DNA of 64,000 bases from Eledone cirrhosa (lineage: Eukaryota), in contig OZ024747.1 of NCBI GenBank assembly GCA_964016885.1, positions 51,336,001-51,400,000 on the forward strand, given 5' to 3'. Shown here one piece after another: positions 48,652 through 48,687 of the stretch. How positions within the stretch are numbered: the stretch's first letter is position 1; each line of letters begins with the position of its first letter. The notes below the pieces were generated by a model that ran no database searches, had not been told where the DNA came from, and was given only the letters and a program-made list of their open reading frames with translations. The translations under genes were made by a program, and so were the position numbers.

Positions 48652-48687
48652 CTTTACCGGTTTCGCAGTTCTTCTGCTTTTCAAAAG
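48652..48687 (-). ncRNA. Minimal type I hammerhead with U3-A8 core variant
   Basis: CTT TTGAAAA GCAG aagaa CTGC GAAA CCGG TA/ AAG. Lies in an element at about 48530-48722; a partly deleted homolog is at 31340-31465. Confidence 0.75.

Follow-up and report, generated by a model that had tools for sequence, protein, structure and literature searches.

A hammerhead-type motif with a U3-A8 core

The 36-nt segment at positions 48652 to 48687 of a 64,000-nt stretch of Eledone cirrhosa DNA (hereafter the window) raises the question of whether a hammerhead core in which U3-A8 takes the place of the C3-G8 pair is the settled state of a repeat family or a product of decay. We consider it highly probable that the segment is a U3-A8 minimal type I hammerhead lying in a very abundant repeat of ~200 nt, itself likely a Penelope-like terminal repeat or a non-autonomous derivative of one. 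The letters and the U3-A8 core given for this element in a preliminary description were borne out on the minus strand (48687-48652 as written). The element, which will be named copy 1, reads CUU UUGAAAA GCAG AAGAA CUGC GAAA CCGG UA AAG (48652..48687, minus strand), and is made up of the following parts.

48687-85/48654-52, minus strand: stem I, 3 bp
48684-48678, minus strand: core UUGAAAA, U3 to A9 (U3 at 48684, A8 at 48679)
48677-74/48668-65, minus strand: stem II, 4 bp
48664-61, minus strand: GAAA
48661-56, minus strand: palindrome ACCGGU
48655, minus strand: A17, with the predicted cut between 48655 and 48654

The type I order is kept, positions 3 and 8 are paired (U3-A8), GAAA and U16.1-A17 are present, and stem II is closed by G10.1-C11.1 (48677/48665). 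The palindrome ACCGGU makes up 15.2-16.2/loop 3 and would permit a dimer, being used in this way in the predicted two-copy fold. Stem I is 3 bp long in copy 1 as well as in copy 2 (see below), inside the 2-5 bp range of minimal Penelope-like hammerheads. G10.1 stands directly 3′ of A9, without the usual extra unpaired base between 9 and 10.1. Copy 1 is a real motif whose sequence has all the parts of a minimal type I hammerhead, and its earlier designation as a hammerhead-type motif of the Penelope kind is supported.

A descriptor scan of the 64-kb window that allowed six versions of the 3-8 pair found C3-G8 six times and U3-A8 once, whereas the other four versions gave no match; copy 1 was the only U3-A8 match with a simple stem II. 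The chance expectation for U3-A8 under loose settings, estimated from 100 local block-wise dinucleotide shuffles, was 0.06 matches per window, and under strict settings, at the level of copy 1, there were no U3-A8 matches in the 100 shuffled windows. A local Rfam scan of 48590-48722 (E up to 10) returned three matches at E 1-7, none of them to a hammerhead family, and a match to MALAT1 (E=1) was rejected. Scanning the whole window against Rfam gave 628 matches, and the 150 listed were swamped by microsatellites matching microRNA models.

Canonical-core (CUGAUGA) hammerhead motifs of the Penelope type occur at least seven times in the window and belong to several families (21344+, 46004+, 31633-, 47218-, 50626-, 50893- and 63728-). 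A looser scan also picked up, on the minus strand, UUGAUAA (U3-A8) motifs at 50251 and 49656. They belong to a direct repeat in which they are spaced by 595 nt; their stem II is long and irregular, and the palindromic insert measures 8 nt. This repeat is presumably the other family meant when the UUGAAAA family was first described as unrelated. The two are indeed unrelated, having only short chance words in common (best E 0.049, in AT-rich sequence).

Copies 2 and 3 in the window

The preliminary description had named two further homologs, which are located as follows.

46566..46602, plus strand: copy 2, of a sister subfamily, with UUGAAAA, a 5-bp stem II (GCAUU/AAUGC), stem I UUU/AAA and ACCGGU
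46534..46730, plus strand: ~197-nt unit carrying copy 2, its 5′ start 35 nt upstream of U3
31337..31465, minus strand: copy 3, a partial near twin of copy 1, with U3 at 31426; its motif stretch (31430-31409) keeps ttgaaaagcag

The core heptamer, palindrome and both stems of copy 2 are as had been stated, but a change in the conserved GAAA, which reads GCAA (A13C at 46591), had been left out. A13 is a conserved base of the hammerhead core, and changes at this position are strongly damaging. To judge from its sequence, copy 2 is likely inactive as a core donor. Homology with copy 1 is limited to about 66-68 nt, at 79% identity and E 2e-9. Copy 3 does keep ttgaaaagcag, but it is not the diverged intact homolog that it had been taken for: 112 of 125 aligned bases are identical to copy 1, and 16 nt are gone, a loss that takes away GAAA, CCGG and the 3′ strand of stem II together with the greater part of loop II. 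On its letters copy 3 is not a hammerhead, and it was rejected as independent evidence. The tally for the window is one intact copy (copy 1), one mutated in the core (copy 2) and one deleted (copy 3). The argument from conservation across three diverged copies fails, since two are defective and one of these is a near twin. For copy 1 the window offers no intact partner on the same strand, copy 2 lying on the opposite strand and carrying A13C, and copy 3 lacking the palindrome.

Structure-preserving covariation had been named beforehand as a test of the motif. Comparison of copy 1 with copy 2 shows two-sided changes in two of the nine pairs, a result equalled in 123 of 500 shuffles; this two-copy signal is not significant, and covariation was therefore rejected as proof of structure. 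A covariance model built from copies 1 and 2 recovered both of them from the window and copy 3 at E 0.02, together with weak matches at 50594-50642 (E 0.5) and 41593-41624 (E 2.7), and it detected no further intact copy in the window. The motif at 50626, corresponding to the match at E 0.5, could be a distant C3-G8 relative of the UUGAAAA family.

Abundance and variation of the repeat unit

Copy 1 is part of a longer repeat unit, which includes an AAUAAA hexamer.

48518..48723, minus strand: ~206-nt repeat unit carrying copy 1, between TA/CA microsatellites, its 5′ start 39 nt upstream of U3
48640..48645, minus strand: AAUAAA hexamer, 7 nt past stem I of copy 1

Four of 21 listed public sequencing runs (X1, X6, X8 and X17) were compared with 48520-48925 at 80% likeness, differences being listed from 3% upwards. 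In run X1, 5,322 contigs matched this 406-nt stretch. Summed depth, which is not to be equated with copy number, reached 1.1-1.5 million over the motif and 0.2-1.0 million over the remaining unit, and was 4-10 thousand in most bins of 48800-48925, high depth being confined to 48520-48715. This contrast in depth means that the unit of copy 1 is a very abundant short repeat. Run X8, which bears a different species label, gave 280 contigs, about half of which were less than 90% alike, and run X6 gave seven contigs on 48520-48925, while run X17, with nine reads and no more than a trace in the bins of the motif, was uninformative. Just upstream of copy 1, positions 48743-48836 form an imperfect 94-nt hairpin (81% self-complementary), and 48800-48925, adjoining this hairpin, is a separate repeat of lower abundance.

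Among the 36 motif positions, 33 had no listed change at or above 3% in X1, including U3, A8, GAAA and the palindrome, and neither U3 nor A8 was listed as variable at that level in X1, X6 or X8. U3-A8 is therefore the fixed state of the UUGAAAA family and not decay, as the preliminary description had supposed; the evidence put forward there is weak. The 24 nt upstream of the motif were as invariant as the core in the run comparison, which argues that conservation of the core stems from descent from a recent source and not from selection.

The same comparison bears on the claim that stem II varies in a way that keeps pairing. Position 10.4 of stem II was the most variable site of the motif, with two changes at 5.6% and 5.4% of X1 depth (11% together), and was changed in 88.6% of the X8 depth spanning that base; its partner 11.4 was not listed as variable. 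The commonest stem II change thus appears to break its pair, leaving only three pairs constant. Changes of G10.1 made up 3.6% and 4.3% of X8 depth, and C11.1 to U accounted for 5.2% of X1 depth and 15.2% of X8 depth. As a general rule the claim cannot be upheld, given that only C11.1 to U retains pairing, as G-U; many X8 contigs were clipped at loop II, and more diverged stems are for that reason invisible in this run.

A family-specific pattern gave no match in metagenome contigs and none in viral contigs. Its two matches in prokaryote genomes (L120 and L121) were dismissed as chance, having neither the family flanks nor, by eye, the 4-bp stem II. A looser pattern found 119 metagenome loci from 25 of 64 collection parts, likewise taken as chance; one of the 119 combined a stem II of at least 4 bp with a stem I of at least 3 bp, partly via G-U pairs.

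Relationship to Penelope-like elements

The unit at 48518..48723 is likely to derive from a Penelope pLTR. No reverse transcriptase or endonuclease frame adjoins any of the three copies in the window, which is AT-rich, microsatellite-dense animal sequence with an apparently octopod-like SINE content. Indirect signs of the Penelope type at the copies are the inverted 5′-truncated duplicate at copy 2 (see below), the microsatellite flanks, and the AAUAAA 3′ of copy 1; inverted 5′-truncated copies and a bias towards microsatellites are given as Penelope traits in the available text of PMC8557442. Elsewhere in the window, a GIY-YIG frame at 22516-23085 (Pfam, E 1e-5) represents a Penelope remnant.

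That frame belongs to a Penelope 3′ end at 22027-23480 (plus strand), in which a C3-G8 hammerhead motif comes after it, at about 23328. At about 16790-20040 (plus strand) there is a Penelope-like element, nearly full-length but decayed, which has direct terminal repeats and broken frames. It carries a mutated hammerhead at about 19856, followed by AAUAAA as in copy 1, and a Pfam search with its frame at 17425-18204 returned no match. The window also contains a LINE-type element (54192-59423, plus strand) with an ORF1-like frame and then an endonuclease and reverse transcriptase frame (E 1e-6 and 3e-24) split by a frameshift.

It is a real, if somewhat less than even, possibility that the unit stands on its own as a non-autonomous element whose ends are defined, i.e. 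a SINE-like or retrozyme-like monomer borrowing the Penelope enzyme, and not a set of randomly truncated 3′ ends. The start lies 35-39 nt upstream of U3 in each of the three copies, the units of copies 1 and 2 are both ~200 nt long despite only ~68 nt being shared, and the high depth is confined to 48520-48715; moreover, animal retrozymes have been argued to derive from Penelope terminal repeats, according to the available part of bioRxiv 10.64898/2026.07.22.740005. However, the copies are solo and not head-to-tail, the loop 1-loop 2 contacts of canonical retrozymes are not evident by eye, and the upstream edge (48712-48757) was repeat-masked in the run comparison, which makes the 5′ boundary unreadable across the family. 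A free-standing element would in any case be a sub-case of our main reading, that of a U3-A8 minimal hammerhead in an abundant repeat related to Penelope-like elements, and would leave the hammerhead part of it unchanged.

Folding and proposed mechanism

The fold of a single copy 1 is unremarkable (z -1.1), and the minimum-energy fold of the 36 nt is not the hammerhead. In the lowest-energy fold of two copies (-19.1 kcal/mol), both stems II are formed and ACCGGU pairs between the molecules as a 6-bp helix; the 3-bp stem I is unfavourable in the dimer (+3.4 kcal/mol in the nearest-neighbour model). We propose that helix III, which is predicted not to close within one copy, would form between two copies pairing through ACCGGU, and that each of the paired copies would cut the other after A17, in line with proposals made for other Penelope hammerheads. 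U3-A8 would already have been present in the source element and would have been copied out with it by the Penelope reverse transcriptase/endonuclease, the ribozyme of the source element being dimer-dependent and probably slow. This dimer-dependent reading fits both the two-copy fold and the dimer model of PMC4209133, where minimal Penelope hammerheads are reported to have cleaved only as multimers, and only weakly. Most genomic copies, copy 1 included, are likely inert passengers. The motif may even be dispensable for the element, by analogy with a Penelope element of the anole, for which the available text of PMC11167929 reports that hammerhead-dead mutants were not impaired, inserting normally in vitro, and that there were no RNA reads ending at the cut.

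Alternatively, the motif might be a fossil, that is, a hammerhead descendant whose U3-A8 source element had lost cleavage before spreading, which we regard as unlikely. The normal insertion of the hammerhead-dead mutants (PMC11167929) would agree with such a history, as would a stem I of only 3 bp with a U-rich 5′ side that can mispair with the core and loop II, and the presence of A13C in copy 2 inside an insertion whose arms remain 100% identical. On the other hand, the 3-8 pair departs from the consensus on both sides yet still pairs, and the core positions have no listed variants, whereas C11.1 to U, a change that still allows G-U pairing, is listed at 5-15%; in addition, activity in vitro is reported for engineered U3-A8 ribozymes (PMC3088659, citing its ref. 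32). That an AT-rich repeat with a hairpin and two short palindromes should resemble a hammerhead by chance alone, as the mere 36 nt of the motif, the lack of a match to Rfam hammerhead families and the fold z-score of -1.1 might suggest, is extremely improbable in view of the shuffled windows without a strict match, the register of all core positions, G10.1-C11.1 and the palindrome, the identical core heptamer published in a Penelope element (PMC4209133), and the presence in the window of at least six similarly built motifs with a canonical core.

An inverted arm beside the predicted cut of copy 2

Copy 2 is flanked by the following structure.

46401..46533, minus strand: inverted 5′-truncated duplicate of 46598-46730 (133 nt, 100% complementary)

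Copy 2 lies mostly inside the 64-nt spacer of this perfect 133-nt inverted repeat. The inner end of the arm, 46598, is 2 nt from the predicted cut after 46599, and the two bases beside the predicted cut might be the first ones of the sense copy. The inner arm end is a possible footprint of insertion templated by cleaved RNA. Taken further, this would describe a non-autonomous Penelope derivative of fixed length and very high copy number, with a U3-A8 hammerhead that is active in vivo and with some insertions copied from cleaved RNA, so that their inverted arms start at the cut, a scenario that we find quite improbable. It concerns a single case noticed after the fact, and the other inverted hammerhead structure, at 45874-46105, extends about 29 nt past its cut site. 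Depth in X1 shows no drop upstream of the predicted cut, and among the 18 loose ends listed for X1 (there were 189 more) none was marked as beginning at the cut. As to earlier work, the available text of PMC4209133 contains no evidence of in vivo cleavage by Penelope hammerheads, and that of PMC11167929 reports that it was not detected in RNA reads. If the scenario were true, a genome-wide peak of 5′ ends at the cut base would amount to a record, preserved in DNA, of cleavage by Penelope hammerheads in living cells. The structure at 45874-46105 itself has 87% complementary arms around the canonical-core hammerhead at 46004.

Comparison with known hammerheads

The U3-A8 core is already published (2011, 2014). 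U3-A8 hammerheads had been proposed to be a common, overlooked class, but they are on record in PMC4209133 and PMC3088659, and C3-G8 motifs outnumber U3-A8 in the window.

No paper on the UUGAAAA family was found in the literature searched, that on octopus and cephalopods included, which does not imply its absence from print or from repeat libraries. Dimeric Penelope hammerheads have reportedly also been treated by Lünse et al. in RNA Biol, and closer variants may be contained there. The new points may be the host, the abundance, and the fact that U3-A8 occurs together with a palindrome of 6 nt and without an extra base. The significance is small, namely one more host and one more family for a known core variant. 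Searches fixed on CUGANGA miss whole repeat families, and thousands of near-identical copies provide a test bed in which insertion ends around the predicted cut could be counted to learn whether cleavage by Penelope hammerheads takes place in vivo.

Perreault et al. (2011, PMC3088659) described several natural hammerheads in which C3-G8 has covaried to U3-A8, and stated, citing their ref. 32, that engineered U3-A8 ribozymes were active in vitro. Their examples have the same core swap as copy 1, and in the available text a tie to Penelope is not made. Animal non-LTR retrozymes are described as small non-coding AT-rich units with a type I hammerhead, present in about 120,000 copies in the axolotl (PMC7229834). 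As far as the available texts go, retrozymes are arranged in head-to-tail tandems and mostly have canonical hammerheads (PMC7229834; bioRxiv 10.64898/2026.07.22.740005), whereas the three window copies are solo or inverted and carry a minimal motif.

U3-A8 also replaces C3-G8 in the Cercyon element of Schistosoma mansoni, with ~1,300 hits (Cervera & De la Peña 2014, PMC4209133). In Fig. S3 of that paper, row S. mansoni 4 shares the heptamer UUGAAAA, and Table S1 links it to a Penelope gene, and row S. mansoni 3 has UUGAUAA, as does the second U3-A8 repeat of the window; among the rows covered, none is from an octopod. Cercyon resembles copy 1 in being type I, with a short open stem I, U3-A8, G10.1-C11.1, a palindromic helix III region and mostly solo copies. 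It differs in having a stem II of 6-8 bp (4 bp in copy 1), a palindrome of 4 nt (6 nt, ACCGGU, in copy 1), an extra base after A9 (none in copy 1) and a gene-linked row, whereas no gene adjoins the copies in the window.

The Penelope variants with a small palindromic helix III, reported from Drosophila, rotifers, shrimp and mosquito (PMC4209133), share with copy 1 the palindromic insert between A15.1 and U16.1, but the rows listed for these animals have a C3-G8 core. The rows of Marsupenaeus and Saccoglossus (2) are also without a base between 9 and 10.1, and the missing extra base in copy 1 therefore does not exclude its membership. The Marsupenaeus row is like copy 1 in its 4-bp stem II, the lack of an extra base and its 6-nt palindrome (PMC4209133).
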